Shown here: positions 10,810 through 39,362 of the stretch, one piece after another | How the letters are laid out: every line of letters starts with the position of its first letter | Numbering within the stretch: position 1 is the stretch's first letter | Origin: Candidatus Hadarchaeota archaeon | Lineage (GTDB): Archaea > Hadarchaeota > Hadarchaeia > Hadarchaeales > Hadarchaeaceae | Length of the DNA: 64,000 nucleotides | Reading direction: 5' to 3' | Assembly (NCBI GenBank): GCA_964514965.1 | Contig: CAZETV010000001.1 | Coordinates: forward strand, 30,756-94,755 | Translations under genes and position numbers: made by a program | The notes under the pieces: generated by a model | Told to the model about the DNA's origin: nothing | Database searches by the model: none | Seen by the model: only the letters and a program-made list of their open reading frames with translations

Positions 10810-10880
10810 TCGTATTCCCCATCATACTTCTCAACCGCGAATGTTAATAATGTGGCGCCGAATTTATTTTTGGTGATAAT

Positions 10881-11567: not shown

Positions 11568-11571
11568 TAAA

Positions 11572-14487: not shown

Positions 14488-14502
14488 TATAAATCAATTC
14501 GG

Positions 14503-15354: not shown

Positions 15355-15636
15355 AAGACTACCGATTTTTATTTGTGGGAGGAAAAATAAACCTGCTTAA
15401 CAAGCTGTGAATGGATTTCTGCAGAGTTACTACAAGCGTTCCTGAGTCTAACCCAATTATCTTTTTCAAAAAGCGTCCAGTGGTGATTTAATAGAGAATG
15501 GCTATCCCAGGTAAAAAGAACTTGACGTGGATGAGGCTTTCAGGTTTTTGGGTTGCCTCTTCCAAAATTTAGGAGTTTGTACAGTCCTAACCATTAACTG
15601 GATGAACTGCCTGCATGTTGTAGGTGGAGATCGACC

Positions 15637-16140: not shown

Positions 16141-16231
16141 GGGCCCATAGCTCAGTTGGTAGAGCGCCGCCTTCGCATGCATTTGCCGGAAAAGGCGGAG
16201 GTCGCGGGTTCGAGTCCCGCTGGGTCCACCA
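16141..16231 (+). tRNA. tRNA-Ala (anticodon CGC) with 15-nt intron at 37/38 (16178..16192), CCA encoded
   Basis: Manual fold. Acceptor GGGCCCA/TGGGTCC, D-arm GCTC-AGTTGGTA-GAGC, anticodon stem CCGCC/GGCGG with loop TTCGCA|intron|A, T-arm GCGGG-TTCGAGT-CCCGC, discriminator A. Confidence 0.85.
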
Positions 16232-17049: not shown

Positions 17050-17142
17050 GGGCCCGTGGCGCAGATTGGTTAGCGCGTTCGGCTGATAGCCAGTTTGGCA
17101 GAAACCGGAAGGTCGAGGGTTCGAATCCCTCCGGGCCCACCA
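17050..17142 (+). tRNA. tRNA-Ile (anticodon GAU) with 15-nt intron at 37/38 (17089..17103), CCA encoded
   Basis: Manual fold. Acceptor GGGCCCG/CGGGCCC, D-arm GCGC-AGATTGGTTA-GCGC, anticodon stem TTCGG/CCGGA with loop CTGATA|intron|A, T-arm GAGGG-TTCGAAT-CCCTC. Confidence 0.85.
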
Positions 17143-19182: not shown

Positions 19183-19256
19183 GCCGGGGTGGCCCAATCT
19201 GGAAAGGCGGCGGACTGCAGATCCGCTTTTTGCCGGTTCAAATCCGGCCCCCGGCT
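19183..19256 (+). tRNA. tRNA-Cys (anticodon GCA), no intron, U73 discriminator, CCA not encoded
   Basis: Manual fold. Acceptor GCCGGGG/CCCCGGC, anticodon stem GCGGA/TCCGC with loop CTGCAGA, T-arm GCCGG-TTCAAAT-CCGGC, discriminator T. Confidence 0.85.
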
Positions 19257-19357
19257 CTGTTTTTATACTTTTATTTCAAAGCCGACTTAGGCGTGCCAAA
19301 AATTGAATGCGTTCATAAAAAAAAAGGTTTATAAACACTATCTCTAAATCTCTCTTC

Positions 19358-20212
19358 ATGTGCCCGCCTTCGAAACTTTTCGGATTCGCGCTTGCGGCGA
19401 TTTTTGTGGTCGTTGGATTGTCTGGATTAGTGGGTGCAGTTTCCGATCATGGGTGGACTCTCGAAACCGCAGACCAGGCCTTCCAGACTTGGATAATAAC
19501 GGATATAGAAGTAGGGCAGCAGGCAACGCTCACAGTCGATAGTTCCGGAAACTTTACAGGTTTGGGCTGGGTCGGAACCGCCCCAGGTGCTGGCGACTAT
19601 AACATCTATATCACGAATGGTAGGATGTCAGGTACCTCGATGACCTTTCAGGTGAGTGCTTCTTATAGCGGAGGACAAGGGACCATTTCAGGAACAGGTA
19701 CTGGGACACTGAACGCATCATTCCCGAGCGCTACATCAGCATCCGGAACACATTCCGGCACCATATCGGATCCACTTGGCAGTAAGGCTTACAGCTCCTC
19801 GTGGACTGCAACGAAAATTGGGGGAGACGGCGATGGAGGAGGTCTAGTCTTCCCAGACCTCACCGTATTAATCTATCGTGTAGCACCGGGTGTATCCCTT
19901 ATCGTCGCTATAGTTGCAGCTGTTGCAATCGTAGTCGCTATTCTGCCCCTTCCACGTAAGGGGGTTCGACCCACAAGAGGTAAGTTAAAAACCGGTGCGC
20001 CTGCCAGCATGGTTCAGCATCTAGATTCAATACAAAAAATCCCGCCGGGTGCACGGCCTCTGCCTCAACCTAGGTTGCATCCGGGCAAATTTGAGCCAAC
20101 CGATGTCCTTCAAAAAGTCCCCTGTCCATACTGCGGTACTATCCTCATTTCCGCATTTGGAAAATGGTACTGCCCGAATCCAAAGTGCAAATGGAATAAA
20201 GGAGAAGTGTAA
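19358..20212 (+). CDS. bitopic membrane protein: N-terminal signal/anchor, Gly/Ser/Thr-rich extracellular domain, TM helix, cytoplasmic C-terminal zinc ribbon
   Basis: N-terminal hydrophobic segment (LFGFALAAIFVVVGLSGLVGA), a low-complexity GTxxGTGTGT region, a second TM segment (VSLIVAIVAAVAIVVAILPLP), and C-terminal CPYCG ... CPNPKC. TTTATAAA lies about 25 nt upstream, suggesting a leaderless transcript. Confidence 0.55.
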   Translation: MCPPSKLFGFALAAIFVVVGLSGLVGAVSDHGWTLETADQAFQTWIITDIEVGQQATLTVDSSGNFTGLGWVGTAPGAGDYNIYITNGRMSGTSMTFQVSASYSGGQGTISGTGTGTLNASFPSATSASGTHSGTISDPLGSKAYSSSWTATKIGGDGDGGGLVFPDLTVLIYRVAPGVSLIVAIVAAVAIVVAILPLPRKGVRPTRGKLKTGAPASMVQHLDSIQKIPPGARPLPQPRLHPGKFEPTDVLQKVPCPYCGTILISAFGKWYCPNPKCKWNKGEV

Positions 20213-21147: not shown

Positions 21148-21963
21148 TTAATATTCTGATGGGAGTTGTTTTAGTTTTTCATACGAAAAGACAGGTCCAT
21201 CTCGGCATACATAAACACTGCCTAAATTGCACCTTCCGCATTTGCCCAATCCGCACTTCATTTTCATCTCAAGCGTCATAAAAATTTGATCGGGTTTGAA
21301 TCCTAACTCCAAGAGGTTTTTCATGACAAAGTTTATCATGATTGGGGGACCGCAAGTCACGGCTATCGAATTTCCGGATGGAGGAGAAATTTTCAGCAAG
21401 TTGGCGGGTACGAAGCCTACAAATTCACCCCACCCATCCTCGGCCTTGTCGATTGATAAATGCACCTTTACTCCGTTATCCCTTAAGCCAAGGAGTTCTT
21501 TTTCTCGAATCAAATCTTTCCTACTCCTTGCTCCGTAAATTAACATCAATTCTCTGTACTTTCCTTTATTCATTGTATAGTAAAGCAGAGGTCTCAGTGG
21601 GGGTAAACCTATGCCGCCGCCGATTAGTATTAATTTTTTTCCTTCCCACTCTTTAACTGGAAAACCGTTCCCATACGGTCCTCTTACCCAAACGGTTTCT
21701 CCCACCTCGAGTCTGTGCAGCGCCGTTGTAACTTTGCCCATCTTTTTCACGCAGATTTCTATTTTACCTTCAGCTGGTGGCGAAAAAAGAGAGACCGGAA
21801 ACTCACCTTCCCCTAGCACTGATATTTCGAAGTACTGTCCCGGAACAAAATTTAGCTTCTCTTCTCTGTCTTTTAGCTCCAGCTCAAAGCTCTTTATGTC
21901 TGGCGTTTCTTGCCTGATTTGCTTGATTACTGCGGGTTTTGGAGAGTAAATATATTCAGTCAA
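21148..21963 (-). CDS. NAD(P)H-binding FAD/[2Fe-2S] oxidoreductase subunit (sulfhydrogenase gamma HydG/AsrB/PyrK/FlxA-like)
   Basis: FNR-like FAD and NAD(P) domains (RPYS-type region, GGGIGLPPLRPL) and a C-terminal Cys cluster CGLGKCGRCNLGSVYVC. The proposed start is a TTG that overlaps the upstream stop (TTGA), with GGTGGGG 5 nt upstream. The track ATG start at 22014 would overlap the upstream gene by 55 bp. Confidence 0.75.
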   Translation of the reverse strand: MTEYIYSPKPAVIKQIRQETPDIKSFELELKDREEKLNFVPGQYFEISVLGEGEFPVSLFSPPAEGKIEICVKKMGKVTTALHRLEVGETVWVRGPYGNGFPVKEWEGKKLILIGGGIGLPPLRPLLYYTMNKGKYRELMLIYGARSRKDLIREKELLGLRDNGVKVHLSIDKAEDGWGEFVGFVPANLLKISPPSGNSIAVTCGPPIMINFVMKNLLELGFKPDQIFMTLEMKMKCGLGKCGRCNLGSVYVCRDGPVFSYEKLKQLPSEY

Positions 21964-22961
21964 GATTTCCCCACCTTCGATAATATCTCGATTAAATTTA
22001 TCCCTGATGGACAATTATCTAAGCATCTCCCGCAGCCGACGCAGCCGATTTCATCGATGTTTTCCAACAGGTATTGGAACTTGTGGTAGACTCTGTTTCG
22101 AATCCTCTCTCGTCGGGTTGGTCTTGGGTTATGGCCGGAGGATTGCAAGGTGAAATAAGGGAACGTGCAAGAATCCCAAGTTCTCACCCTGAAGGTTTTG
22201 CCGTCCAAGAATTCGTCAGTCAAATCAAAGCAATGACAGGTGGGGCAAAAGTAAGCGCATACCCCACAGCCAATACATATTTTGGATACTTCGTCCCAGA
22301 TTTCGCTTTCGAAAGTGTGTTTTAATTTTGCGGTTACCTGCTTCACATCTAATTCTCGTGCAATCTTTTTTTCCGCGTTCTGCTGGGTGTTTTTCCTTAA
22401 CTCTATATCAGCTTTGGTTGGTTCTGAGAACAATTCTTTGCTACTCTCAACCAATTTTTCCCCGACCTTGCTCAACACTTCCACATAGTATTTCTCACCC
22501 ATATCTGTGAGCAGCATATCGAGCCCATCTGTAGAAAACGGACCCAAGCCGAGAGAGCTGCAAAAACAATTTTCCCCTGGGGATGTACAGGCCAGCCCGA
22601 TCATGGGGAGATTATTTTTCCTCTGTAAAAAGTAAGGGTCTTCACGATCTTTTTCGAAAACCTTGGTCAACACCTGTATGCTTTTCGCATCGCAGGGTCT
22701 AACTCCAAATATTACTCCCAAGTTCGAAACTTTTGGTGTATAGATCTCCTTTTTGCCCGCCATGAAAATCGTTTCCGTTTGAGGCATGAATAAAGACTTG
22801 ATTGGTTTCAGGGTGTTCGTGAACTCAAAAGTTATTTCTTTCGGATCATTTACAAGCTTAAACTCGATTTTGCCTTCCTCATCTTTAACAGGTGCATATA
22901 ACTTTTCAGTGCGCAGATTTCGCAGAAACTTTTGCAAATCTCTCTTCTTGATGACTTTCAT
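21960..22961 (-). CDS. 4Fe-4S subunit, sulfhydrogenase beta/AsrA/FlxB-like
   Basis: GVRPCDAKS N-domain motif plus two ferredoxin-type motifs (CIGCGVCAYFCPTCHC and CVGCGRCLDNCP). Start overlaps the upstream gene with ATGA. Confidence 0.75.
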   Translation of the reverse strand: MKVIKKRDLQKFLRNLRTEKLYAPVKDEEGKIEFKLVNDPKEITFEFTNTLKPIKSLFMPQTETIFMAGKKEIYTPKVSNLGVIFGVRPCDAKSIQVLTKVFEKDREDPYFLQRKNNLPMIGLACTSPGENCFCSSLGLGPFSTDGLDMLLTDMGEKYYVEVLSKVGEKLVESSKELFSEPTKADIELRKNTQQNAEKKIARELDVKQVTAKLKHTFESEIWDEVSKICIGCGVCAYFCPTCHCFDLTDEFLDGKTFRVRTWDSCTFPYFTLQSSGHNPRPTRRERIRNRVYHKFQYLLENIDEIGCVGCGRCLDNCPSGINLIEILSKVGKS

Positions 22962-23929
22962 CTTATGAACTCCTCAGGATCCTCTAGTTTAAAACTCGCG
23001 AGAAGAGGTTTCTGTTCTATATTTATGCCCGCCCTGTAGTCAAAAAGATTCTTCATGTCTTTTTCCATTTTTCTAAACAGCTTTGAGAGTGGTATCCCCT
23101 CCGGGCAGCTATGTTCGCACGCAACGCAGCCAACGCACCTCCCGGCCAAGTGGAATACTCTCATCAAATGGAAAAAGGCATTTTCGGACTCAACTACTGA
23201 TTTTTTAACCCATGTTGGCATCGTCTTGTCCGCGAGACATTCTTTGCAATAGCAGAGCGGACACACTTCCCTGCAGGCATAGCACCTAACACATTTACTT
23301 AGCTTTTCCTTCCAGTAATCCCATCTCTCCTCTAACTCCATTCTCTCTATCTCCTTCACGTCGTCGTAGTTCTCTTTGCCCCAGGGTTTCACTTCCTCGC
23401 CGAGCAGGATATCATAAATTACAGGGGTGGGATTTTGGCAGTGATTGCAACTGTCGAACACGAATTCTCTTCGATCGAGTTTGATGACTCCATTTTTTGT
23501 TTCGACTTTCACTGTTCCGTTTTCGATTAGAATTCCCGTGACTGAAGAGGACTGTACATTTCTTTTACCGAGCTCTTCACGCAGTTTTTCAAGGTCTACT
23601 ATACCCTGGCAAGGAATTCCTATCAGCACCACTTTCTCTCTGTCAACAATCCCTTCCTGTATCAACTTTGTCACTGCACGGCTATCGCAACCTTTGACCA
23701 CCAAGCCGATTTTTTCGCCTGCTTTGATTTCTTCTAAAGTTAAATAGACGGCCAAATTGTGAGCACATAGAGAGGAATAGTGTAGTTTGTTAACATCATC
23801 GGTCGATTTAGCAAAGAAGGGCCTCGCGTTCAAGGGTTCGACCATTTCGTATCCGATGATATATTTCACTTTTCCTTCGGTCAGTAGCCTGTTTGCCTCT
23901 TTTCGGAGATTTTCTACTAAGCTTACCAT
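22958..23929 (-). CDS. second HydB/AsrA-like 4Fe-4S subunit (FlxC-like paralog of 21960..22961)
   Basis: KGCDSRAV N-domain motif plus CVRCYACREVCPLCYC and CVGCVACEHSCP. It is paralogous to the adjacent gene and translationally coupled on both sides. Confidence 0.65.
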   Translation of the reverse strand: MVSLVENLRKEANRLLTEGKVKYIIGYEMVEPLNARPFFAKSTDDVNKLHYSSLCAHNLAVYLTLEEIKAGEKIGLVVKGCDSRAVTKLIQEGIVDREKVVLIGIPCQGIVDLEKLREELGKRNVQSSSVTGILIENGTVKVETKNGVIKLDRREFVFDSCNHCQNPTPVIYDILLGEEVKPWGKENYDDVKEIERMELEERWDYWKEKLSKCVRCYACREVCPLCYCKECLADKTMPTWVKKSVVESENAFFHLMRVFHLAGRCVGCVACEHSCPEGIPLSKLFRKMEKDMKNLFDYRAGINIEQKPLLASFKLEDPEEFIR

Positions 23930-24345
23930 TCTATCTTCCTCTTGATTTTTTTCATTGGGCCAAGCACTCGGATTTCTTCCACCATGTCTTCCACGATTTT
24001 AGCAAACTTCTGTCCTTCCGATGCAGAAACCCACGCGGCTTGGAGCCTTTTTGGATTTATCCCAATGTATTCCAAAAGATTTCTTAGGAGCTTCAGTCTT
24101 CTTCTATTGTAATAGTTTCCTTCCCGATAATGGCATTCCCCTGGGTGACAACCACCTATGAACACGCCGTCAGCTCCTTGCTGGAAACACCTCAACACCC
24201 ACAATGGATTCACCCTGCCCGAGCACATCACCCTGATGGTTCTCAAGTTAGGCGGGTAGGTCAATCTGCTAGTACCTGCCAAATCGGCTCCCGCATAAGC
24301 ACACCAATTGCATAAGAAGCCTACTATACGCGGTTCCCAACTCAA
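23923..24345 (-). CDS. mvhD: MvhD-type [2Fe-2S] electron-transfer subunit (FlxD/MvhD)
   Basis: 140 aa with the FLCNWCAYAGAD ... CSGRV ... GADGV(F/L)IGGCHPGECHY pattern typical of methyl-viologen-reducing hydrogenase delta subunit. Confidence 0.85.
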   Translation of the reverse strand: MSWEPRIVGFLCNWCAYAGADLAGTSRLTYPPNLRTIRVMCSGRVNPLWVLRCFQQGADGVFIGGCHPGECHYREGNYYNRRRLKLLRNLLEYIGINPKRLQAAWVSASEGQKFAKIVEDMVEEIRVLGPMKKIKRKIEW

Positions 24346-27300
24346 CTTTGCTCACCCAGTACATCGATTAAGGGCAATACTTGTTTGTCTTCAAAGTGTC
24401 GCTGTTGAATGGCTCCTGAAGGACAGGCTGCAGAGCATATGCCGCAACCTTTACATAACGCTTCATTTACCTTGGCTAATTTTGATATTGCCCCTTTCTT
24501 CTCCACCGTCTTGAGTTCTATTACATTTGTTGGACAAACCTCAGCACAGAAACCACAACCAGTGCACAAATTCTCATCGACCGAGGCCACAATTCCTTCG
24601 GCCATCACCTTACCTTTTGTTAACAAAGAGCAAACTTCAGCTGCGCTCGCTGATGCTTGTGATACTGTGTCGGGGATGTCTTTGGGCGATTGGGCGCATC
24701 CAGCAAGGAAGATCCCGTCGCTAAAGGTATCGACAGGTCTAAGCTTTGGATGGGCCTCGAGGAAGAAGCCATCCGAGCCTTGGTTAATGTTTAGGATTTT
24801 GGCTAGCTCGGAGGCACCATGGCTAGGAACAATCGCGCTAGCTAACACCACGAGGTCTACTTCTTCGGGCTCGTGAGGCTTTGCTTCCACAACGAGTTTG
24901 TCATTTTTTTTGCTGACCCTTATCTCGTCGTCCAGCTCCCTGCGCTTGTACTTCACTCCTTCGTCCTTGACCCGGTCGTAGAACTCCTCGTACCCTTTAC
25001 CAAAAGCCCTGACATCTGTGTAGTATACAGTCACTTCAGCATCCGGAATTTTTTCCTTAATGAGGTGAGCATGCTTGGCCGTGTACATGCAGCATACGCG
25101 CGAGCAATATGAGTTCGTCTCTTTTTTCCTGCTTCCAACACAGGAGATGAATGCTACTCGCTTCGGCTCCTTACCGTTTATTTCAATTTTTCCGTTGGTC
25201 GGGCCGGAAGCCGAACTAAGCCTCTCGAACTCAAGCCCAGTTATCACCTCTGGATATTTCCCGTAACCATACTCGGGGAGCTTGGAAGGATCGAATTGAT
25301 CGAAGCCCGTGGTTACGACTATAGCGCCAACATCGAGTTCGATTGATTCCTCTTTTTGATTATGAACAATGGCTTTGGCCTCGCATGCTTTTTCACATTC
25401 AAGACACTCAGAACACCCGCCGCACTGCAAACATCGTTTTGCTTCTTTTATCGCTTCTTCTTCGGTATAACCTAACTCGACTTCTCGAAAGTTGTTTTTC
25501 CTCTCTTCGATCGGCAGGTATCTCATCGGCACTTTTCGTTCATTTTTAACATCTTCTACTGATACCTCAGCGATTTTTGGTTTTATCCCGCGACCGTCTT
25601 TCAGGTCTTTCTCGTTGATGTATCTGTCAATGGAAATTGCAGCTTCTTTTCCGGCAGCAATTGCTTCTATAACAGTCCCAGCACCTAACACGGCATCGCC
25701 GCCGCAAAAAACGGCTTCTATATTGGTTGCTAACGATATAGGGTCAATTTTGACAGTTCCCCAAGGGGTACATTCTAAATTAATATCCTTGGTTAAGAAG
25801 CTCAAATCCACTTCCTGTCCGATAGCTAATATCAGGCTATCCGCTTCCATCATAAACTCAGAGCCAGGGATGGGTCTAACTTTTCTTCTACCAGTTTCAT
25901 CAGGCTCTGTCAATTCCATCTTGATGCATTCAATTGCTTTGATATGCTCGTTTTCACCTATAATTTTTGTTGGTGTGGTAAGATAGACTAGTTTCACGCC
26001 TTCATGCTCTGTTTCGTCAATTTCCCATTCTGGTTCTGCAGGCATTTCTACACGAGACCTGCGATACATTATGATAACTTCCTTAGCACCTAATCTCAAA
26101 GCAGAACGTGCTGTGTCTAATGCTGCATTGCCTCCACCAACGACAATTATCTTATCGCCTAGTTTAGGAGTCTTACCTAAATTCAGCTCTTTCAAGAATT
26201 CGGTAGCTTGGAATACACCTCCAAGTTTTTCGCCAAGTATATCCATTTTTCTACCTTTCTGAGCCCCCACAGCTAAAAAAATCGCTTTATAACCACTGTC
26301 GAATAGGTTCTTTATAGTCAAATTTTTGCCTATCGCCGAGTTCAGATGCACTTTAACTCCTAGCGCGAGAATGTCAGATATCTCTCTTTCAAGAATTTCT
26401 CTCGGCAGTCGAAAAGTAGGAACACCAAATCGCATCATGCCGCCAAGCACGGGCGCACTTTCATATATTGTTACAGGGTATCCTTTCATAGCAAGGTCAT
26501 GAGCAGCAGTTAAGCCAGCAGGCCCTCCTCCGACTATAGCCACAGTTTCTGTTCTCTTTTTTATAGGGGAGGATTCTGTAGTAGGGCTCTTGAGCTCTAA
26601 ATCTCCGACAAAACGTTTAATATGTGCTATGCTTACTGGCTCATCTATATCTTTTCTTGTGCATGCTTTTTCGCAAGGCCTGTGACAGACCCTGCCGCAT
26701 ATAGATGGAAACGGAAGTTTCTCTTTTATAACTTGGAGTGCCTCGTAGAATTTACCGCGACTGGTGAGCATTACGTAACCAGGTGCGCCAACACCTGCAG
26801 GGCACGCGTCTTTGCATGGTTGTAATCCCCGTTTATCGATAGTATATTTGGGCGGAACCGCTTGTGGGAATGGAATGTAAATTGATTTTCTGCTGCTGAG
26901 CCCAAAGTCAAACTCGTTTGGCAGTTTCACAGAGCATACTTCGGTGCATTCTCCACATCCAGTACACTTTTCCGGGTCCACGTATCTAGGCTTTTTCCTT
27001 ACTTTTAACTTAAAGTTACCTACATAACCCTCGATGTTTTCAATTTCTGAATAAGTCAGGAGTTCTATATTTGGATGCCATTTTACGTCTACCATCTTGG
27101 GGGTGAGAATGCACGCAGAGCAATCCAGAGTTGGGAAAGTCTTGTCGAGTTGGGCCATCCTCCCTCCGATGGATGGTGAGCGCTCCACGAGGTATACTTT
27201 GAAACCCCTGTCCGCGATGTCGAGGGCAGCTTGCATCCCGGCTATGCCCCCGCCTATTACGGCGGCCTGAGGTATGACGGAAATTTCGTTTCTTTCCAAG

Positions 27301-27689
27301 CTTTCGAGTTCTACAGCTCTGTTTACACCTGCCAAGACGAGTTCCAGCGCTTTTTTCGTAGCTTCTTCTTTTTCTTCATGAACCCAAGAGCATTGCTCTC
27401 TTATATTCACCATCTCGAAGCAGTAAGGATTCAGCCCCGCTTCTTCGACAGCGCTGCGAAAAGTAGGCTCATGCATCCTGGGCGAACAAGATGCTACTAC
27501 TATTCTGTCTAACTTCTCCCTGCGGATATCATCTTTGATTAATTGCTGGCCGGGTTCTGAGCACATGTATTCGTAGTGTTTGGAGACCTTCACTCTTGGA
27601 TGCTTTCCTATGGTATCCGCGACTTTTTCGACATCCACTGTCTTCGCAATGTTGGTTCCGCAATGACAGATATAGACGCCGATTTTCAT
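24342..27689 (-). CDS. hdrA: HdrA-like flavoprotein with embedded GltD/NfnB-like NAD(P)H oxidoreductase module (HdrL-type giant HdrA), 1115 aa
   Basis: N-terminal HdrA domain (GVYICHCGTNIA, VIGGGIAGMQAAL), then about 430 aa with GltD-type 2x[4Fe-4S] (CKDACPAG ... CGRVCHRPCEKAC) and two Rossmann motifs (VAIVGGGPAGLTAAHDL; IIVVGGGNAALDTARSA), then the rest of HdrA including the inserted and C-terminal ferredoxin domains. One continuous ORF, 4-bp overlaps on both sides. Confidence 0.8.
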   Translation of the reverse strand: MKIGVYICHCGTNIAKTVDVEKVADTIGKHPRVKVSKHYEYMCSEPGQQLIKDDIRREKLDRIVVASCSPRMHEPTFRSAVEEAGLNPYCFEMVNIREQCSWVHEEKEEATKKALELVLAGVNRAVELESLERNEISVIPQAAVIGGGIAGMQAALDIADRGFKVYLVERSPSIGGRMAQLDKTFPTLDCSACILTPKMVDVKWHPNIELLTYSEIENIEGYVGNFKLKVRKKPRYVDPEKCTGCGECTEVCSVKLPNEFDFGLSSRKSIYIPFPQAVPPKYTIDKRGLQPCKDACPAGVGAPGYVMLTSRGKFYEALQVIKEKLPFPSICGRVCHRPCEKACTRKDIDEPVSIAHIKRFVGDLELKSPTTESSPIKKRTETVAIVGGGPAGLTAAHDLAMKGYPVTIYESAPVLGGMMRFGVPTFRLPREILEREISDILALGVKVHLNSAIGKNLTIKNLFDSGYKAIFLAVGAQKGRKMDILGEKLGGVFQATEFLKELNLGKTPKLGDKIIVVGGGNAALDTARSALRLGAKEVIIMYRRSRVEMPAEPEWEIDETEHEGVKLVYLTTPTKIIGENEHIKAIECIKMELTEPDETGRRKVRPIPGSEFMMEADSLILAIGQEVDLSFLTKDINLECTPWGTVKIDPISLATNIEAVFCGGDAVLGAGTVIEAIAAGKEAAISIDRYINEKDLKDGRGIKPKIAEVSVEDVKNERKVPMRYLPIEERKNNFREVELGYTEEEAIKEAKRCLQCGGCSECLECEKACEAKAIVHNQKEESIELDVGAIVVTTGFDQFDPSKLPEYGYGKYPEVITGLEFERLSSASGPTNGKIEINGKEPKRVAFISCVGSRKKETNSYCSRVCCMYTAKHAHLIKEKIPDAEVTVYYTDVRAFGKGYEEFYDRVKDEGVKYKRRELDDEIRVSKKNDKLVVEAKPHEPEEVDLVVLASAIVPSHGASELAKILNINQGSDGFFLEAHPKLRPVDTFSDGIFLAGCAQSPKDIPDTVSQASASAAEVCSLLTKGKVMAEGIVASVDENLCTGCGFCAEVCPTNVIELKTVEKKGAISKLAKVNEALCKGCGICSAACPSGAIQQRHFEDKQVLPLIDVLGEQS
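24877..25274. repeat. 398-bp tract 100% identical to 28197..28594 (within the two hdrA paralogs); similarity extends over about 24650..25290
   Basis: Base-by-base comparison at a constant offset of 3320 bp. Identity is perfect across 24877..25274 and about 85-90% identity in the flanks. Confidence 0.9.
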
Positions 27690-29644
27690 GATATCAGACC
27701 TGCCAATTGAGCGAAGAGTTGAACGTCCGTGTAATGTTTCATAGAGATAGCCTTAGACGGACAAGCGGCTACACAAACCCCGCAACCCTTGCAAAGCACT
27801 TCGTTGAGTTTTACTGAGCGTTTTTCGCTGTTATATTCAAAGGCATTAAACTCACAAAGGTGTTCACACACTCTGCAACCGCTACATAGATCCTCATCCA
27901 CAATTGCTACTATCGGCTCTATCGCGACTTTTCCAGCTGCCAGGGGTATAGATGCTTTAGCACCTGCACCGCTTGCTTGTGCTACTGTGTCGGGGATGTC
28001 TTTGGGCGATTGGGCGCAGCCGGCAAGGAAGATCCCGTCGCTAAAGGTATCGACAGGCCTAAGCTTTGGGTGGGCCTCGAGGAAGAAGCCATCCGAACCG
28101 CGGGTAATGTTCAAAATTCTGGCGAGTTCTAAGACTCCGGAGTTTGGAACTATTGCATTCGCCAGCACAACGAGGTCTACTTCTTCGGGCTCGTGGGGCT
28201 TTGCTTCCACAACGAGTTTGTCATTTTTTTTGCTGACCCTTATCTCGTCGTCCAGCTCCCTGCGCTTGTACTTCACTCCTTCGTCCTTGACCCGGTCGTA
28301 GAACTCCTCGTACCCTTTACCAAAAGCCCTGACATCTGTGTAGTATACAGTCACTTCAGCATCCGGAATTTTTTCCTTAATGAGGTGAGCATGCTTGGCC
28401 GTGTACATGCAGCATACGCGCGAGCAATATGAGTTCGTCTCTTTTTTCCTGCTTCCAACACAGGAGATGAATGCTACTCGCTTCGGCTCCTTACCGTTTA
28501 TTTCAATTTTTCCGTTGGTCGGGCCGGAAGCCGAACTAAGCCTCTCGAACTCAAGCCCAGTTATCACCTCTGGATATTTCCCGTAACCATACTCAGGCAA
28601 CTGAGATGGATCAAACAAGTCAAAGCCTGTGGCGACCACTATCGAGCCTACTTCAAGTTCAATCGAATTTTCTTGTTGTTCAAAATCGATAGCGTTGCGG
28701 GAACACGCAGCTTTGCAAGCGGGGCTTTTCCCACATACCCCTCTCGTAAGGTATAGGCAATGCTTAGGGTCTATCAAGTATTTCATAGGCACGGCCTGCG
28801 GAAATGGTATGTATGCTGCTCCTCTCTTCCCTAAACCCAAATCGAATTCATTTGGAAGCTTCCCATTCAGTAAGCAAGCTTTGGCGCATTCTCCGCAACC
28901 GATGCACTTTTCCTCATCGACATACCTCGGTTTTTTCTTAACCTTTACCTTGAAATTTCCGATGTAGCCTTCAATTCGTTCGACCTCCGAATAACTCAAG
29001 AGTTCTATATTTGGCTGTCTGTTCACGTCCACCATCTTGGGGGTTAAAATGCACGCAGAACAATCTAAGGTTGGAAAGGTTTTGTCGAGTTGAGCCATTT
29101 TTCCTCCGATGGATGGTGAGCGCTCCACGAGGTACGTGTATATTCCATTTTCTGCTATCTCCAACGCCGCTTGAATCCCGGCAATTCCTCCTCCAATCAC
29201 CAAAGCTTTCGGTATTACATCTACTTCTCTCCTCTCTAGCGGCTGAAGTTCGGTAGCTCGTGCCACAGCGCCTGCAATCAATTTCTTGGCCTTTTCAGTG
29301 GCTCTTTCTTTATCTTCATGAACCCAAGAGCACTGTTCTCTTATATTTGCCATCTCGAAGCAGTAGGGGTTGAGGTTCTTGTGTTCTACGACCTTTCTAA
29401 AAGTGGGTTCGTGCATTCTTGGAGAACAGCTCGCCACGACTACACGATCAAGTCCGGCTTCGTCTATATCCTTCTTGATTAATTCTTGTCCTGGGTCAGA
29501 GCACATGTACTTATAGTCCCTAGCAATCACCACGTTTGGCAAAGACTTGGCATATTTCACCACTTCTTCAACATCAACGGTAGCCGCTATATTTAAGCCG
29601 CAATGGCAAATGTACACGCCCGTTTTCACTTCCTTATCCCCCAT
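27686..29644 (-). CDS. hdrA: heterodisulfide reductase subunit A (canonical length, 652 aa)
   Basis: N-terminal GVYICHCGLNIA and FAD-binding VIGGGIAGIQAALEIAENG, the HdrA four-Cys insertion, C-terminal ferredoxin motifs CSGCRVCEHLC and CKGCGVCVAACP. No in-frame TGA. Confidence 0.9.
   Translation of the reverse strand: MGDKEVKTGVYICHCGLNIAATVDVEEVVKYAKSLPNVVIARDYKYMCSDPGQELIKKDIDEAGLDRVVVASCSPRMHEPTFRKVVEHKNLNPYCFEMANIREQCSWVHEDKERATEKAKKLIAGAVARATELQPLERREVDVIPKALVIGGGIAGIQAALEIAENGIYTYLVERSPSIGGKMAQLDKTFPTLDCSACILTPKMVDVNRQPNIELLSYSEVERIEGYIGNFKVKVKKKPRYVDEEKCIGCGECAKACLLNGKLPNEFDLGLGKRGAAYIPFPQAVPMKYLIDPKHCLYLTRGVCGKSPACKAACSRNAIDFEQQENSIELEVGSIVVATGFDLFDPSQLPEYGYGKYPEVITGLEFERLSSASGPTNGKIEINGKEPKRVAFISCVGSRKKETNSYCSRVCCMYTAKHAHLIKEKIPDAEVTVYYTDVRAFGKGYEEFYDRVKDEGVKYKRRELDDEIRVSKKNDKLVVEAKPHEPEEVDLVVLANAIVPNSGVLELARILNITRGSDGFFLEAHPKLRPVDTFSDGIFLAGCAQSPKDIPDTVAQASGAGAKASIPLAAGKVAIEPIVAIVDEDLCSGCRVCEHLCEFNAFEYNSEKRSVKLNEVLCKGCGVCVAACPSKAISMKHYTDVQLFAQLAGLIS
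28197..28594. repeat. 398-bp tract 100% identical to 24877..25274
   Basis: See partner feature. Confidence 0.9.
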
Positions 29645-29742
29645 GAAATCACGCCAGCAGTGAATTTGGCCTAGGTTTAATCTTTTTATCTATTACCATC
29701 ATGGTTTAAAAGTCGTCCTGACTAAAAGGTTGAGGTGGCCGG

Positions 29743-30735
29743 TTGAGAAAAATGAAGAGTGAAGAACCAAAAAAGTTGAAATTTGCTTTCTACTGGGCTG
29801 GCAGTTGTGGGGGCTGTGAGATTGCTGTTCTAGATATAAACGAGAAGATTCTGGATGTGGTTGCCATTGCTGAGGTAATCTTTTGGCCTGTCGCCATGGA
29901 TATCAAGTATAAAGACGTAGACGCGATGCCGGACAAGAGCATAGACGTCTGTTTCTTTAATGGTTCGGTCAGGACAGAGGAGCAAGAACACATGGCCAAA
30001 CTTCTGAGGCGGAAGTCAAAGTTTTTGATAGCATTTGGCACCTGTGCTCAGCTAGGTGGCATTCCAGGTCTTGCGAACATTTCGAATAAAAAAGAGATTT
30101 TCGAGAAGGTATACGTTCAAACTCCATCGACAAAAAATTCTAAAGCTGCGATACCTAAAACTGCTGTTAAAGTCGAATGCGGGGAACTAACTCTGCCAGA
30201 GTTTTATGATACTGTGAAGACACTAGATCAAACCGTGGAAGTGGACTACTATATCCCAGGTTGTCCTCCGCACCCAAACTTGATATTGAAAGCCGTGGAA
30301 GCCATAGCCAAAAATGAGTTACCCGCTAAAGGTTCGGTATTGGCCCCCGAGAAGTCGGTTTGCGATGAATGTCAGAGGGAAAAGAAAGAAAAGGTTATCT
30401 CCAGATTATACAGGATGCACGAAATCAAACCAGATCCGGAGAAATGTTTTTTGGAGCAGGGGGTGGTGTGCATTGGGCCCGCAACCCGTGGTGGATGCGA
30501 GGCGCGGTGTATCAATGCGAATATGCCTTGTACGGGGTGCGGTGGTCCATGCCCCAATGAAATCGAGCAAGGGGCGTCCATGATAAGTGCCATTTCTTCG
30601 ATTCTCGGGTTGGATGAGGAAAAAGGAGAAACATATGACGCTGAAAAATTAATCAACCAAATAAAAGACCCCTTGGGGACTTTTTACCGGTACTCCCTGC
30701 CAGCTGCTCTCATCCGAAGGAGGGTTCAGAAATGA
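29743..30735 (+). CDS. mvhG: [NiFe] hydrogenase small subunit, F420-non-reducing type (MvhG)
   Basis: N-terminal YWAGSCGGCEIAVLD, proximal and distal cluster Cys (CxxC ... GCPP ... CTGCGGPCP), approximately 330 aa. Confidence 0.85.
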   Translation: MRKMKSEEPKKLKFAFYWAGSCGGCEIAVLDINEKILDVVAIAEVIFWPVAMDIKYKDVDAMPDKSIDVCFFNGSVRTEEQEHMAKLLRRKSKFLIAFGTCAQLGGIPGLANISNKKEIFEKVYVQTPSTKNSKAAIPKTAVKVECGELTLPEFYDTVKTLDQTVEVDYYIPGCPPHPNLILKAVEAIAKNELPAKGSVLAPEKSVCDECQREKKEKVISRLYRMHEIKPDPEKCFLEQGVVCIGPATRGGCEARCINANMPCTGCGGPCPNEIEQGASMISAISSILGLDEEKGETYDAEKLINQIKDPLGTFYRYSLPAALIRRRVQK

Positions 30736-32219
30736 GCGAATTTAAGGAGATAAGCATAGAGCCCGTCACGAGGCTTGAGGGTCACGCAAAGATAGTGATA
30801 TTTCAAGATGAGAAAGGGGAAGTGAAAAACGCCTATTTACAACTCCCTGAACTCAGGGGCTTTGAGAGATTCTGTGAGGGGAGAAAAGCTGAAGACCTCC
30901 CACAGCTGCTCTCGAGAATTTGCGGAGTATGTCCCGTTGCCCATCATCTCGCTTCCACGAAAGCTTTGGATGCGGCGTTTCGTGTGGACCCCCCTTCAGC
31001 TGCGAAAAAACTTCGGGAACTCATGTACAGCGGCTATTTCATGTACGATCACATTCTTAATTTTTATTTCCTAGCTGCGCCGGACTTCGTCGTGGGGCCT
31101 GATGCTCCACCTCAAGAAAGAAACATTTTCGGCGTGATCAAGAAGGTCGGCTTAGACGTGGCCAAGGAAGTAATCAAGCATCGGGCTTACGGCCAAAAAA
31201 TTACCGAGATAATAGGTGGAAAGGCAACCCATCCGGTTTGTGGACTTCCGGGTGGCATATCCAAGCCGCTGACGGAAGAAGAAAGAAAGGAAATAGAAAA
31301 GATGGCGGAGGCCGGGCTTGAATTCGCCAAGTTCAGCTTGAAGTTATTTGACGATGTTGTATTGAAAAATAAGAAATACGTTGACCTGATTATGAGCGAC
31401 GCTTACACTTTAAAAACATATTACATGGGTCTAGTGGACCGAAACAACAAGGTCAATTTTTACGATGGCAAAATACGTGTGGTTAATCCCGGGGGTCAAG
31501 AGTTCGTGAAGTTTAACCCATCCGAATACTTGGACATCATCGAGGAGCATGTTGAGGAATGGAGCTATGTAAAACTACCTTATCTCAAAAAAATCGGATG
31601 GAAAGGCTTGAGGGATGGACATAGCAGCGGGATTTACAGAGTTGGTGCATTGGCCAGACTAAATGCCGCAGATGGCATGGCGACTCCCCTAGCCCAGCAA
31701 GAGTACGAGAGGATGTATGAAACCCTAGGCGGGAAGCCCGTGCACTCAACTCTCGCGTTTCACTGGGCTAGACTGATAGAAATAATTTATGCGGCCGAAA
31801 GATGCCTAGAGCTCAGTCGAGATGAAGAGATAACGAGCAAGGAAATTCGAAACGAGCCAAATACCCCGGGAGAAGGAATCGGAATAGTCGAAGCTGCGAG
31901 AGGTACATTGATCCATCATTACAATCTTAACAAAGAGGGCCTAACCGAAAAAGTAAATTTGATAGTCCCTACGACCAACAACAATCCATCCATCTGCATG
32001 TCCGTGAGGGATGCAGCGAAGGGGCTCATCCATGGTAAAGAAGTTAGCGAGGGGTTGCTGAACATGGTGGAGATGGCTTTGAGAGCTTATGACCCATGTA
32101 TCGCATGCGCTTCCCACTGCCACATAGGCGATTTGCCCCTTGAAATAAAAATACACGATAATAATCGGAGTTTGATAAAAACCGTTGTGAGAGAACCTCT
32201 TGGCTTTAAACACTTTTAG
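30732..32219 (+). CDS. mvhA: [NiFe] hydrogenase large subunit (MvhA)
   Basis: N-terminal RLEGHAKIVI and RICGVCPVAHH (RxCGxCxxxH) with C-terminal DPCIACASHCH Ni-binding motif followed by a cleavable tail. Overlaps mvhG by 4 bp. Confidence 0.9.
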   Translation: MSEFKEISIEPVTRLEGHAKIVIFQDEKGEVKNAYLQLPELRGFERFCEGRKAEDLPQLLSRICGVCPVAHHLASTKALDAAFRVDPPSAAKKLRELMYSGYFMYDHILNFYFLAAPDFVVGPDAPPQERNIFGVIKKVGLDVAKEVIKHRAYGQKITEIIGGKATHPVCGLPGGISKPLTEEERKEIEKMAEAGLEFAKFSLKLFDDVVLKNKKYVDLIMSDAYTLKTYYMGLVDRNNKVNFYDGKIRVVNPGGQEFVKFNPSEYLDIIEEHVEEWSYVKLPYLKKIGWKGLRDGHSSGIYRVGALARLNAADGMATPLAQQEYERMYETLGGKPVHSTLAFHWARLIEIIYAAERCLELSRDEEITSKEIRNEPNTPGEGIGIVEAARGTLIHHYNLNKEGLTEKVNLIVPTTNNNPSICMSVRDAAKGLIHGKEVSEGLLNMVEMALRAYDPCIACASHCHIGDLPLEIKIHDNNRSLIKTVVREPLGFKHF

Positions 32220-32272: not shown

Positions 32273-32770
32273 ATGGAAAAATGTGCGATTCAAAATAATT
32301 TCAACGAGAAGCTCAAGAAGTGGCTTCTAGATGCCCGAAGGGTTGTTATCGCAGGTATTGGAAGCTCGATTCGAAAAGATGATTTCATAGGGGTCGGGGT
32401 CGTAGAAAAACTACGGGGGAAAGTTTCACGATCGGTTCATTTAATAGTGTGTGGAATGTCTCCTGAGAATTTTTTAGAACCGATTATTCACTTTAAGCCA
32501 ACCCACGTACTATTTGTCAACGCGGCTCAACTAGGCTTAAAACCTGGTTCTTCAAGGTTGATTGAACTAAATCAGATTTCGTGGCCAGCGGTATTGACTC
32601 ATGCTCTAACTCATCAGATATTTCGAGAATTTCTAACAGAGGCAACTGGTGCTAAGGTCGCTCTGCTCGCCGTGCAACCAAAGGACACGAGTTTTGGAGA
32701 AGGTTTTACAAAAGAATTGGAAGAAACTGTCGAGCGTTTATCAAGTTTTTTGTTGAGGGTTTTACCCTGA
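32273..32770 (+). CDS. hydrogenase maturation endopeptidase (HycI/FrhD-like)
   Basis: 165 aa with GIGSSIRKDDFIGVGVVEKL and a downstream His, typical of hydrogenase maturation proteases. Sits directly after mvhA. Confidence 0.75.
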   Translation: MEKCAIQNNFNEKLKKWLLDARRVVIAGIGSSIRKDDFIGVGVVEKLRGKVSRSVHLIVCGMSPENFLEPIIHFKPTHVLFVNAAQLGLKPGSSRLIELNQISWPAVLTHALTHQIFREFLTEATGAKVALLAVQPKDTSFGEGFTKELEETVERLSSFLLRVLP

Positions 32771-32807: not shown

Positions 32808-33269
32808 TTAACTACCCGAAACTAGTGGCTTTGGAATTTGGGCCGATACTTTACAAGGCCCCAACTTTGTAATTTCATTAACAACTTCCGTAACAATTTT
32901 AACAAATCGTTCGGCTTCTCCAGCTGATACTGTCTCGAACCTGAGCCGCTCCGGTTCTATCCCCAACTGCACTAGTATTCGTTTGAGCAGTTCAACTCTT
33001 CGCTGAGCTTTGTAGTTTCCAGAGACGAAATGACAGTCTCCGAAGTGGCATCCAGCGACCAAAACCCCGTCCGCACCTCGTTTAAAAGTTTCTAGAATGT
33101 AAACAGGGTCTAGCCGCCCAGTGCACATCAGCCTGATGATGCGGACGTTGGGCGGATAATGCATGCGGCTCGTTCCAGCGAGGTCAGCCGCAGCGTAGGA
33201 GCAGAAATTGCAAAGAAAGACGATGATTTTTGGTTCAAATTCAACCATGTTATCTACCTTTAATATCAC
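32808..33269 (-). CDS. mvhD: second MvhD-type subunit
   Basis: FLCNFCSYAAADLAGTSR ... CTGRLDP ... GADGVLVAGCHFGDCHF. It sits 43 bp downstream of sufBD on the same strand. Confidence 0.85.
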   Translation of the reverse strand: MILKVDNMVEFEPKIIVFLCNFCSYAAADLAGTSRMHYPPNVRIIRLMCTGRLDPVYILETFKRGADGVLVAGCHFGDCHFVSGNYKAQRRVELLKRILVQLGIEPERLRFETVSAGEAERFVKIVTEVVNEITKLGPCKVSAQIPKPLVSGS

Positions 33270-33312
33270 TAGTGTACTTAAAAATTTTAATTCTTATATT
33301 TTTCACCCCACC

Positions 33313-34533
33313 TTACAAGGCTTCACCGAGAGTTACATCGACCATCCGCTTGATATCCCTTTTCAAGGCGTCTGGAAGTCCAAAAATGTCAATATCCATG
33401 AATCCCCGAATAATCAGTGATTCTGCATCAGACTCCGAAAAACCCCTCGCAGTCAAGTATTGGACTTGCTCTTCCGCTATCTTCCCTACGGCGGCTTCAT
33501 GCGAAAGTTCGGTCCCCTTCACTTTCCCCGCCAGCTCTGGAATTGCGTGTATAAATGCTTCGTCAGAGAGCAAGAGACCCCTGCATTCTAGGTGCGCCTT
33601 ACTGTCTCGGTGCTCTCCAACCAAGAGTCCACGGGCATTTATCTGCGCATTGTCCGAGGCTATCGCCCGCGCGATGACTTCTCCTTTGCTCCCTTTGCCT
33701 TGAAGAACCGCTTTCGAGCCTACATCCAAATAGGAGTTCTGCCTCCCGTGTAGAATTGTGTTGAACCTGACCCTAGAGTTAGACCCCTTACAGTAAGCAA
33801 CTGGGTACATTTGAATACTTTTCACCGGTTTCATGCACAGGTAATTGTTAATAAACGTTGCATCGTCGTCTAAGAGGGCCGCAGTTCGAGGTCGGACGTC
33901 AAAATTTTGGGCCCAGTTATGAATCATGGTGAAAGTGAGCTTCGCGTTTTTCTTCACATAAAATTCGGAGATGCCCACATGCAGACCACTTTGAACGTTT
34001 GGGTGGGTCGTGCAGCCAGTTATTATTTGGGCCTCAGAGTGGGGTTCTGCGATTATCAAGTTATGAACGTTTTGGTTAAAATTGTCTTTTGAGATGAAAA
34101 TGCATGCTTGTAGAGGGAGCGTGATTTTTTGCCCCTCAAGTATTCGGATGAAATAGCCCTGATCCCACTTTAACTTGGCCAAAGTGGTGAATTTGTCGGT
34201 GCTTGGGTCAACAATTTTCCACCAATACTCCTTGGCCCAGCGGTATTTTTTGAGTGCTTCTTTAGTGCTCATTATTTCGGCTTTTCCCCTGAAAGTTTTT
34301 TGGATTGCTTGAAGAACCGCAGAATGATCTATTTGAAAATATGTGCCTGCTCGTTCCTTTTCCCTGGTAATGCCAACGCTTAGGGCTCTTTGGGTGATAT
34401 TTTCTGGTAGCGTCGAAATAGTACATGAGGGCCAAGGTGAAGTTTCTCTTTTGAAAGTTTCTACATCTAAGTCGGGCCCAAAAGCCGCTGGTTTTCTGAT
34501 TGTACTCAACGTAGTCTTTTTACCTTTGGGCAT
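33313..34533 (-). CDS. sufB: Fe-S cluster assembly scaffold SufB/SufD-family protein
   Basis: 406 aa SufBD beta-helix family. Overlaps sufC upstream. Confidence 0.8.
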   Translation of the reverse strand: MPKGKKTTLSTIRKPAAFGPDLDVETFKRETSPWPSCTISTLPENITQRALSVGITREKERAGTYFQIDHSAVLQAIQKTFRGKAEIMSTKEALKKYRWAKEYWWKIVDPSTDKFTTLAKLKWDQGYFIRILEGQKITLPLQACIFISKDNFNQNVHNLIIAEPHSEAQIITGCTTHPNVQSGLHVGISEFYVKKNAKLTFTMIHNWAQNFDVRPRTAALLDDDATFINNYLCMKPVKSIQMYPVAYCKGSNSRVRFNTILHGRQNSYLDVGSKAVLQGKGSKGEVIARAIASDNAQINARGLLVGEHRDSKAHLECRGLLLSDEAFIHAIPELAGKVKGTELSHEAAVGKIAEEQVQYLTARGFSESDAESLIIRGFMDIDIFGLPDALKRDIKRMVDVTLGEAL

Positions 34534-39344: not shown

Positions 39345-39362
39345 TTCACTAAGTTCATCGGA

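Follow-up and report, generated by a model that had tools for sequence, protein, structure and literature searches.

A conserved hydrogenase–Flx–HdrA–HdrL gene cluster in a Hadarchaeota archaeon that may encode a bifurcating or confurcating assembly for H2, NAD(P)H and ferredoxin

We analyzed a 64-kb stretch of DNA from a Candidatus Hadarchaeota archaeon (contig CAZETV010000001.1), referred to here as the window, to which our direct data are confined. In it, six overlapping genes on the minus strand encode two HdrA flavoproteins, an MvhD adaptor and a Flx-like NAD(P)H oxidoreductase module, and next to them lie genes for an Mvh-type [NiFe] hydrogenase, a maturation protease and a second MvhD. 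We tentatively propose that the six-gene operon, the divergent mvhGA-hycI genes and the second mvhD encode one soluble assembly that bifurcates or confurcates electrons among H2, NAD(P)H and ferredoxin, a reading to which we give somewhat less than an even chance. Gene identities were assigned from Pfam, NCBIfam and PDB matches, with E-values or bit scores as given for each protein, and gene order was compared with that in contigs labelled L005, L006, L080–L086 and L088. The features of the cluster are as follows, with protein lengths in amino acids (aa).

27686..29644, minus strand: hdrA, type I, 652 aa; NCBIfam HdrA2, PDB 5odc_A
24342..27689, minus strand: hdrL (type III hdrA, the giant hdrA), 1115 aa, with an NfnB/GltD-like module inserted
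25455..26837, minus strand: NfnB/GltD-like insertion in hdrL, aa ~285–745
23923..24345, minus strand: mvhD1 (flxD), [2Fe-2S] adaptor, 140 aa; PF02662 FlpD, VhuD
22958..23929, minus strand: flxC-like Fe-S protein, 323 aa; PF04432, FdhB-like C-terminal domain
21960..22961, minus strand: flxB-like Fe-S protein, sulfhydrogenase beta/AsrA-like, 333 aa; Fer4_22, ShyB
21148..21963, minus strand: flxA-like FAD/NAD(P)H/[2Fe-2S] protein, 271 aa from a TTG start; the open frame reaches 22014
29645..29742, no strand: putative divergent-promoter region, 98 bp, AT-rich, between the hdr-flx and mvh operons
29743..30735, plus strand: mvhG-like [NiFe] hydrogenase small subunit, 330 aa; PF01058, VhuG
30732..32219, plus strand: mvhA-like [NiFe] hydrogenase large subunit, 495 aa; L1/L2 motifs, PDB 5odc_F
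32273..32770, plus strand: hycI-type hydrogenase maturation protease, 165 aa; PF01750, TIGR00142
32808..33269, minus strand: mvhD2, second [2Fe-2S] adaptor, 153 aa; PF02662, VhuD; convergent with the hydrogenase operon

A preliminary description, made from the letters of the window alone, had presented the array at 21148–29644 as a translationally coupled six-gene unit. We found the six open reading frames (ORFs) head to tail as described, with adjacent pairs overlapping by 4–7 bp. Read from the sequence, hdrA and hdrL share an ATGA (4 bp), hdrL and mvhD1 a TTGA (4 bp), and the flxC-like and flxB-like genes an ATGA (4 bp), while mvhD1 and the flxC-like gene overlap by 7 bp. The flxB-like and flxA-like genes meet in a TTGA (4 bp), given a flxA start at the TTG at 21963. 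The mechanically called start at 22014 would produce a 55-bp overlap with the flxB-like gene; this start is unsupported and the TTG is preferred, since the family matches begin only at residue 18–23. No space is left for internal promoters or terminators among the six genes, and a single translationally coupled operon is therefore the natural reading. The array is nevertheless not the whole unit it had been taken for, as an Mvh-type hydrogenase and a second mvhD, both overlooked at first, are collinear with it in other lineages. The mvhG-mvhA-hycI operon begins 98 bp upstream on the other strand, and the intergenic region contains TTTAAAAG and, on the opposite strand, ATAAAAAG, which are candidate archaeal TATA boxes. 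Domains and motifs are intact in all ten proteins. Profile searches agreed, far beyond chance, with the identities first assigned to the six operon genes (two HdrAs, MvhD, HydB/AsrA-like and HydG/AsrB-like proteins). None of the six proteins reaches an NCBIfam equivalog cut-off, and only the insertion in HdrL passes a subfamily model (PRK12771, 542 vs 516 bits).

The case for a larger unit comes from other genomes. When genome contigs were scanned with the giant HdrA, most of the loci recovered were not close relatives but canonical bacterial hdrB-hdrA-flx arrays, which served as a contrast. In the Hadarchaeota-like contigs L080 and L088, the proteins are 91–92% identical and the divergent layout is the same. 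Two Thermoprofundales contigs (L081 and L082) carry hdrC-hdrB-mvhG-mvhA-hycI-flpD-flxC-flxB-flxA-hdrA-hdrL-flpD on one strand. The order is hycI-mvhGA-flpD-flxCBA-hdrL, with hdrCB divergent alongside, in a Promethearchaeota (Lokiarchaeial) genome (L083), and hdrL-flpD-flxCBA-flpD-mvhGA-hdrA in contigs of metagenome-assembled genomes of Thermoplasmata (L005 and L006), where the mvhD2 orthologue stands directly before mvhG. Because relatives hold the same genes together on a single strand, we regard the genes for the hydrogenase, the two MvhDs, Flx and the two HdrAs as one conserved unit. Judged by gene order, this unit is hydrogenase plus Flx plus HdrA plus HdrL, ten genes in all, and the collinearity of the hydrogenase and the second mvhD with the hdr-flx genes in other lineages points to H2 as a central substrate.

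Further hdrL loci have other partners. Theionarchaea-like and Methanofastidiosia loci (L084 and L086) contain flpD-flxCBA-hdrL and no hydrogenase, and no CCG gene was found within ~10 kb of them. In these loci (L084 10001–18707, L086 4819–13546), the genes that come after flpD-flxCBA-hdrL encode a NuoE-like/FAD fusion, a NuoF-like protein, a NuoG/Fer2_4-like protein and a further FlpD, so that HdrA-type and Bfu-type (NuoEF-like) modules are joined in one cluster. L085 carries hdrL(1474)-flpD-hdrA-hdrL(1189)-flpD-DUF5981-MTHFR at 2620–15610; this tandem HdrA/HdrL pair with a MetF-type methylene-tetrahydrofolate reductase (MTHFR) recalls the Moorella MetFV-HdrABC-MvhD complex.

The smaller HdrA is a complete member of its family. 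It shares ~60% identity with methanogen HdrA, retains all cluster motifs, and aligns with PDB 5odc_A over residues 5–650 (8.6e-237), all Cys motifs being kept and the Cys197 equivalent lying within DCSAC. No exact match to its sequence was found. An N-terminal cluster domain, an FAD/thioredoxin-reductase domain, an intact inserted ferredoxin domain and a C-terminal ferredoxin domain were recognized, and the FAD and six [4Fe-4S] sites required of an HdrA are present. NCBIfam HdrA2 scored 868.6 bits against it, under the cut-off of 1100, and 876 bits against the giant HdrA. Both HdrAs retain the N-terminal cluster motif and the Cys197 equivalent that are needed for the dimer-shared clusters in HdrA (PMC9012536).

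In HdrL, HdrA segments at aa 1–286 and 749–1115, which share 61% and 76% identity with the small HdrA, stand on either side of a GltD block at aa 290–694. This ~460-aa block splits the inserted-ferredoxin domain, half-motifs of which are found on both sides; a GltD/NfnB-like domain inside the inserted-ferredoxin domain of a full HdrA is what characterizes HdrL, or type III HdrA. Thousands of relatives of 1100–1700 aa exist. The insertion matches Pyr_redox_2 (8.5e-43) and Fer4_20 (4e-23) in addition to PRK12771, and among structures 9bov_A (6e-128), 9n5u_A, which is NfnA of NfnABC (9e-123), and 8oh5_C (9e-111). It aligns end to end with NfnB (4ylf_B, 1.9e-102), though even better with those three, which are NfnB-like domains of larger enzymes, and with GltD at only 1e-66. 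Its motifs comprise two N-terminal Cys clusters, GGGPAG as the FAD site, and GGGNAA followed by YRRS, which we take to be the NADPH-type signature of the NfnB/GltD/DPD family. By match and motifs, the insertion thus has the two [4Fe-4S] clusters, the FAD and the NADPH site of an NfnB. The identity matrix of the N-terminal 280 aa (0.71–0.77 either way) did not separate HdrA from HdrL orthologues.

We additionally found that hdrA and hdrL share a block of 398 bp with 100% DNA identity (28197–28594 and 24877–25274), which contains the CVGSR...YCSRVCCMY cluster motif. The flanks are far more diverged, codons for the same amino acid sharing the third base in only 20–60% of cases. The longest identical runs between the two genes are 70 bp in L080 and 58 bp in L088, and the paralogous copies of the region are ~83% identical across the window and L088. 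This pattern points to recurrent gene conversion and concerted evolution of the paralogues, probably with a very recent event in the lineage of the window; alternatively, it possibly reflects an assembly collapse.

The four genes downstream of the HdrAs had been described as Flx-like, and both their domains and their order bear this out. The order hdrA-flpD-flxC-flxB-flxA recurs in ~55 of 79 loci recovered from genomes, mostly bacterial ones that read hdrB-hdrA-flpD-flxC-flxB-flxA, and we therefore regard the four genes as Flx orthologues by synteny. MvhD1 (PF02662 FlpD 1.7e-56; VhuD 8.5e-39) takes the place of FlxD, its gene lying between hdrA and flxC as in bacterial flx-hdr clusters. Two CxxCxxCxxxC motifs are present in each of the FlxB-like and FlxC-like proteins, along with Fer4_22 and Fer4 matches. 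The FlxB-like protein matches Fer4_22 (7e-32), ShyB (3e-68, under the cut-off) and the beta subunit of Pyrococcus sulfhydrogenase I (PDB 9nez_B, 3.5e-53). The FlxC-like protein has an FrhB/FdhB-type N-terminal part (PF04432, 3.8e-12), and its C-terminal di-cluster domain resembles FdhB of solved Fdh-Hdr complexes (9t1s_M 1e-27, 8rvu_E, 7bkb_E), where FdhB presumably passes electrons to MvhD. The two proteins are distant relatives (26% over 129 aa, E 1e-6), so that of the "two paralogous HydB/AsrA-like" proteins first described one is indeed HydB/ShyB/AsrA-like, but the other is of FrhB/FdhB type. An F420-linked role for FlxC, raised by the FrhB/FdhB-type domain, was not adopted, as the N-terminal FrhB domain is missing. 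Canonical bacterial Flx systems also occur in groups that are not known to have F420.

The FlxA-like protein combines FAD_binding_6 (PF00970), NAD_binding_1 (PF00175) and DHODB_Fe-S_bind (PF10418) domains, and carries the motif GGGIGLPP and a C-terminal CGLGKCGRC...C; it thereby has the FAD, NAD(P)H and [2Fe-2S] sites of a FlxA. ShyC/HydG/AsrB-like models matched it with 1e-73 to 5e-58, and among structures the gamma subunit of Pyrococcus sulfhydrogenase (9nez_C, 2.6e-63) lies much nearer than NfnA (4ylf_A, 1.9e-14). The FlxB-like and FlxA-like proteins would thus form a diaphorase pair of an Fe-S protein and an FAD/NAD(P)H/[2Fe-2S] protein. Together with the insertion in HdrL (GGGPAG, GGGNAA...YRRS), the NAD_binding_1 domain of FlxA gives the cluster two separate pyridine-nucleotide sites, in agreement with the preliminary description.

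The hydrogenase is of Mvh type by its motifs, its closest relatives and its gene context. The large subunit has intact L1 (RICGVCPVAH) and L2 (DPCIACASH) motifs, corresponding to RxCGxC and DPCxxC, and a cleavable 33-aa C-terminal extension. It is closest to MvhA/VhuA, with 5odc_F (MvhA) at 9.5e-117, 7t2r_D at 4e-116 and sulfhydrogenase alpha at only 5e-29; VhuA is its best NCBIfam match (434 bits vs a cut-off of 800). HoxH (5xf9_D) and 7t2r_D, the latter presumably the electron-bifurcating NiFe-HydABCSL, score nearly as high as MvhA, and a placement in group 3c is provisional. The small subunit matches PF01058 (7.6e-27) and, as its best NCBIfam model, VhuG (1.4e-66). MvhG and MvhD partners are present, and the linkage to hdrA is conserved in a divergent or collinear layout. 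The hycI-type protease matches PF01750 and TIGR00142 (7.5e-25), and MvhD2 matches PF02662 (6.3e-55) and VhuD (1.2e-44). In the window, mvhD2 closes a sufC-sufBD operon for Fe-S cluster assembly at 32808–35231 on the minus strand, as it does in L080 and L088, whereas in other lineages mvhD directly precedes mvhG.

Neither HdrB, with its two CCG domains, nor HdrC, the further subunits of an HdrABC heterodisulfide reductase, was found in the window. No ORF of 50 aa or more, in any of the six frames of the 64 kb, contains the CCG tripeptide, and the only other ORF with two [4Fe-4S] motifs that might have been a free HdrC-like gene encodes a 2-oxoacid:ferredoxin oxidoreductase (POR) delta subunit (47741–48019). 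With ORFs free of CCG across the window, HdrBC is absent from the 21 kb to one side of the operon and from the 34 kb to the other. No CCG gene was found in the Hadarchaeota-like contigs L080 (15 kb) or L088 (22 kb of a 39.6-kb contig) either. The earlier statement that HdrBC is missing from the operon and its flanks therefore stands within the window, but it does not extend to the genome, as hdrC-hdrB adjoin the homologous clusters of L081–L083; the absence is valid for three Hadarchaeota-like contigs of 15–64 kb. Among the matches listed in a search with the HdrB of L081, only close Thermoplasmatota relatives appeared, which identified L081 and L082 as Thermoprofundales.

How such an assembly could work is suggested by its established relatives. 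In these, MvhD connects Mvh or Fdh, as the input module, with the C-terminal ferredoxin domain of HdrA. The FAD of HdrA bifurcates electrons into one branch leading to HdrC/HdrB and a second that reaches ferredoxin by way of the N-terminal cluster shared in the dimer and then the inserted ferredoxin domain (PMC9012536, summarizing 5ODC). From the gene set we infer the subunit contacts, the heterodimer, and the reaction with its direction. The flavin core would consist of HdrA paired with HdrL, probably as a dimer in the manner of methanogen HdrA, and the two MvhD adaptors would dock two input/output modules onto its C-terminal ferredoxin domains. The first would be the Mvh-type [NiFe] hydrogenase (H2/H+), the second FlxC-FlxB-FlxA as a sulfhydrogenase-beta/gamma-like NAD(P)H:Fe-S oxidoreductase. 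With two MvhDs, two possible input modules and two HdrA paralogues, an HdrA/HdrL dimer with one module per side would be the simplest assembly. The free inserted-ferredoxin domain of the small HdrA would provide the ferredoxin site; that of HdrL would be capped by the NfnB-like FAD/NADP(H) module, with an NADP(H) site in its place. At the HdrA flavins, electrons exchanged with H2, NAD(P)(H) and ferredoxin would then be bifurcated or confurcated. Without HdrBC, NAD(P)+/NAD(P)H would be the only high-potential couple available, NAD(P)+ standing in for the heterodisulfide in that role. If the cell is fermentative and produces reduced ferredoxin, the likely direction would be NAD(P)H and reduced ferredoxin to H2, with the reverse reaction when H2 is the donor; an Nfn-like exchange between the two nucleotide sites may be an additional possibility. 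Bifurcation and confurcation with H2, ferredoxin and NAD(P) are chemistry known from HydABC-type hydrogenases.

Several observations weigh against this proposal. Genes for hdrC-hdrB directly adjoin the module in L081, L082 and L083, CCG genes also neighbour most of the remaining hdrL loci in metagenomes, and hdrBC or hdrD could sit elsewhere in the genome, of which 64 kb are visible. Both HdrAs carry the CVGSR...YCSRVCCMY motif, which we take to ligate the cluster that relays electrons to HdrC in the 5ODC structure; its retention suggests that a partner, either an HdrC encoded elsewhere or another Fe-S protein, still docks there. In addition, the two operons lie on opposite strands in the window, where their co-regulation is presumed, and the stoichiometry of an enzyme with two NAD(P)H modules is not obvious.

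The hdrC-hdrB genes beside the module in L081–L083 also fit a conventional disulfide reductase, in which HdrB/HdrC or HdrD encoded elsewhere would join a Flx/Mvh-HdrABC complex of the kind suggested for Desulfovibrio and Asgard archaea. Electrons from H2, entering at Mvh, and from NAD(P)H, entering at Flx and the NfnB-like module, would then reduce ferredoxin together with a thiol/disulfide carrier such as a heterodisulfide or a DsrC-like protein. The ~55 bacterial and Bathyarchaeial loci with hdrB immediately upstream of hdrA-flpD-flxCBA and the close likeness of the small HdrA to methanogen HdrA, cluster motifs included, argue in the same direction. Against this stand the missing CCG genes in the window and its 15-kb and 22-kb relatives, and the Theionarchaea-like/Methanofastidiosia flpD-flxCBA-hdrL loci, likewise free of CCG genes within ~10 kb. 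A weak and indirect hint is that HdrABC has been named for the alkane-oxidizing Hadarchaeota family, with other families unmentioned (PMC10811742). Overall, we consider this alternative rather unlikely. Were HdrBC encoded elsewhere, the cluster would represent an ordinary though elaborate Flx/Mvh-Hdr system.

We think it quite unlikely that the two operons encode independent neighbouring enzymes, namely Mvh, which would have an MvhD to itself and pass electrons to the small HdrA or a different acceptor, and a separate Flx-HdrL complex. The latter would be an NAD(P)H:ferredoxin oxidoreductase or, as the preliminary description had it, an Nfn-like transhydrogenase for NADH, NADPH and ferredoxin on an Hdr scaffold, which is a conceivable function. 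The NfnB-like domain and the NfnA-related FlxA are ingredients of Nfn chemistry, the operons do lie on opposite strands, and hdrL takes other partners: flpD-flxCBA-hdrL is joined to NuoE/F/G-like genes and has no hydrogenase in L084 and L086, and MetF/MTHFR accompanies hdrL in L085. However, hydrogenase genes are collinear with or adjacent to flx-hdrA-hdrL in four independent lineages, and two mvhD genes fit two modules docked on one core. That the HydB/HydG-like and NfnB/SudA-like parts belong to a polysulfide/S0 or sulfite reductase module of the sulfhydrogenase/sulfide-dehydrogenase type is very improbable: the best named FlxB/FlxA matches are sulfhydrogenase beta/gamma and AsrA/AsrB, but their scores are far under the equivalog cut-offs (ShyB 230 vs 690, AsrA 152 vs 323, AsrB 196 vs 289), no AsrC or sirohaem gene was found, the hydrogenase is Mvh-type rather than group 3b, and the gene order is that of flx clusters.

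The proposed H2/NAD(P)H/ferredoxin assembly also has a more far-reaching form, which we regard as unlikely: a four-substrate hub independent of disulfides, in which an HdrA/HdrL heterodimer, in a genome free of HdrBC throughout, couples the [NiFe] hydrogenase, NADH (at Flx) and NADPH (at the NfnB-like module) to ferredoxin. It would unite a bifurcating/confurcating [NiFe] hydrogenase and an Nfn-like transhydrogenase in one complex and represent a new class of HdrA-based enzyme common to several uncultured archaeal lineages. If the Hadarchaeota version works without HdrBC, the HdrA flavin would bifurcate between H2, pyridine nucleotides and ferredoxin without a thiol/disulfide couple, and "Mvh-Hdr" genes in non-methanogens, including those in models of Asgard syntrophy, would have to be re-read. 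Hadarchaeota, Thermoprofundales, Lokiarchaeia, Theionarchaea and Methanofastidiosia all have the flpD-flxCBA-hdrL module, in most cases next to an Mvh-type hydrogenase, and the balance of H2, NAD(P)H and ferredoxin in these abundant subsurface archaea is inferred from genomes only.

Further genes were identified elsewhere in the window. It encodes the archaeal release factor aRF1, and the best named relatives of its ValRS belong to Ca. Hadarchaeales/Hadarchaeum, at 65–80% identity, which agrees with an archaeon of the Hadarchaeota. POR/VOR-type 2-oxoacid:ferredoxin oxidoreductase genes (gamma 47220–47762, delta 47741–48019, alpha 48016–49200, beta 49197–50069) lie 18 kb from the cluster and would be a local source of reduced ferredoxin; they are directly followed by hypF ([NiFe] hydrogenase maturation, 50106–52427). 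Lysine/diaminopimelate genes (asd, dapB, dapA, aspartate kinase, lysA and a class III aminotransferase) occupy 36921–44884 on the minus strand, a run that is broken by a polysaccharide pyruvyl transferase gene (38289–39344). Overlapping trehalose-6-phosphate synthase (GT20) and trehalose phosphatase genes at 59861–62142 suggest a compatible-solute pathway in this archaeon. Two long tRNA genes, probably intron-containing archaeal tRNAs, were found at 16141–16231 (91 nt) and 17050–17142 (93 nt); ARAGORN gave the first an undetermined four-base anticodon (tcgc) and called the second tRNA-Ile(GAT). A normal tRNA-Cys lies at 19183–19257. ORFs at 19358–20212 (284 aa), 35322–35813 (163 aa), 2232–2684 (150 aa) and 5941–6621 (226 aa) have no Pfam match. 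The first of them also lacks an NCBIfam match; it lies a short way downstream of the operon, flanked by tRNA-Cys and moaE.

The preliminary description knew of no characterized archaeal complex with this combination of subunits, but it overstated how unique the cluster is: fusions of HdrA with GltD/NfnB are published (PMC2702500, PMC9012536, PMC12054007), and FlxABCD-HdrABC, found widely among anaerobic bacteria, was noted in Asgard archaea (PMC7015854). An HdrA/glutamate-synthase fusion was named HdrL in Desulfobacterium autotrophicum in 2009 (PMC2702500). The ANME-1 proteins HdrA9-11, with a 500-aa NfnB-like insertion, followed in 2022 and were suggested to have two bifurcation sites (PMC9012536). 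In 2025, a "type III HdrA" was described, which in Bathyarchaeota is linked to mvhADG; the GltD domain is predicted there, independently of and in favour of our proposal, to block the ferredoxin site and to serve NAD(P)H (PMC12054007). In sediment metatranscriptomes of Thermoprofundales, the HdrA/GltD-like gene ranks among those with high transcription (PMC6461988, Table 3). The component parts are all of known types, and their combination is biochemically uncharacterized: we found no published description of the full Mvh, Flx, HdrA and HdrL set, of an HdrBC-less form or of its occurrence in Hadarchaeota, and no biochemical characterization of such an enzyme in the literature.

Several known systems come close to the cluster. 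One is FlxABCD-HdrABC (Flox-Hdr) of Desulfovibrio vulgaris and many anaerobic bacteria (Ramos et al. 2015, cited after PMC5947623 and PMC12054007). The gene order hdrA-mvhD(flxD)-flxC-flxB-flxA, a FlxA with FAD, NAD(P) and [2Fe-2S] sites, di-cluster Fe-S proteins FlxB and FlxC and an MvhD-like FlxD are common to both, whereas the window's cluster has no nearby hdrB/hdrC, includes the giant NfnB-inserted HdrA, the adjacent [NiFe] hydrogenase and the second MvhD, and belongs to an archaeon. With methanogen MvhAGD-HdrABC (PDB 5ODC) it has MvhA, MvhG, MvhD and HdrA in common, metal-binding motifs included; it differs in lacking nearby HdrBC and a methanogenesis context and in its additional Flx and NfnB-like NAD(P)H modules. 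The Thermococcales sulfhydrogenases I/II (group 3b, 9nez) have beta/gamma (NADPH-oxidizing) subunits homologous to FlxB/FlxA, but the window's hydrogenase is Mvh-like (3c-like), and its diaphorase pair is separated from it by HdrA/HdrL and MvhD. Neither the FlxB/FlxA scores nor the match of MvhA to sulfhydrogenase alpha place the cluster with group 3b sulfhydrogenase or Asr, and no AsrC-like gene was seen.

The insertion of HdrL aligns end to end with the NfnB-like domains of NfnAB, StnABC and NfnABC (4ylf, 8oh5, 9n5u), and FlxA belongs to the same PyrK family as NfnA. In contrast to NfnAB, however, the NfnB-like part is a domain of an HdrA and not half of a free heterodimer, and FlxA, given its greater proximity to sulfhydrogenase gamma, is not a dedicated NfnA. 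HdrL itself agrees with its Desulfobacterium namesake, HdrA9-11 and type III HdrA in that its inserted ferredoxin domain is split by a glutamate-synthase-small-subunit/NfnB-like insertion of ~460–500 aa and that mvhD follows. It differs from the type III HdrA, for which a GXGXXG nucleotide site was reported, in having GXGXXA with YRR, of NADPH type, and from all of these proteins in that it has a type I HdrA and the complete Flx module as tandem partners, in a Hadarchaeota host.

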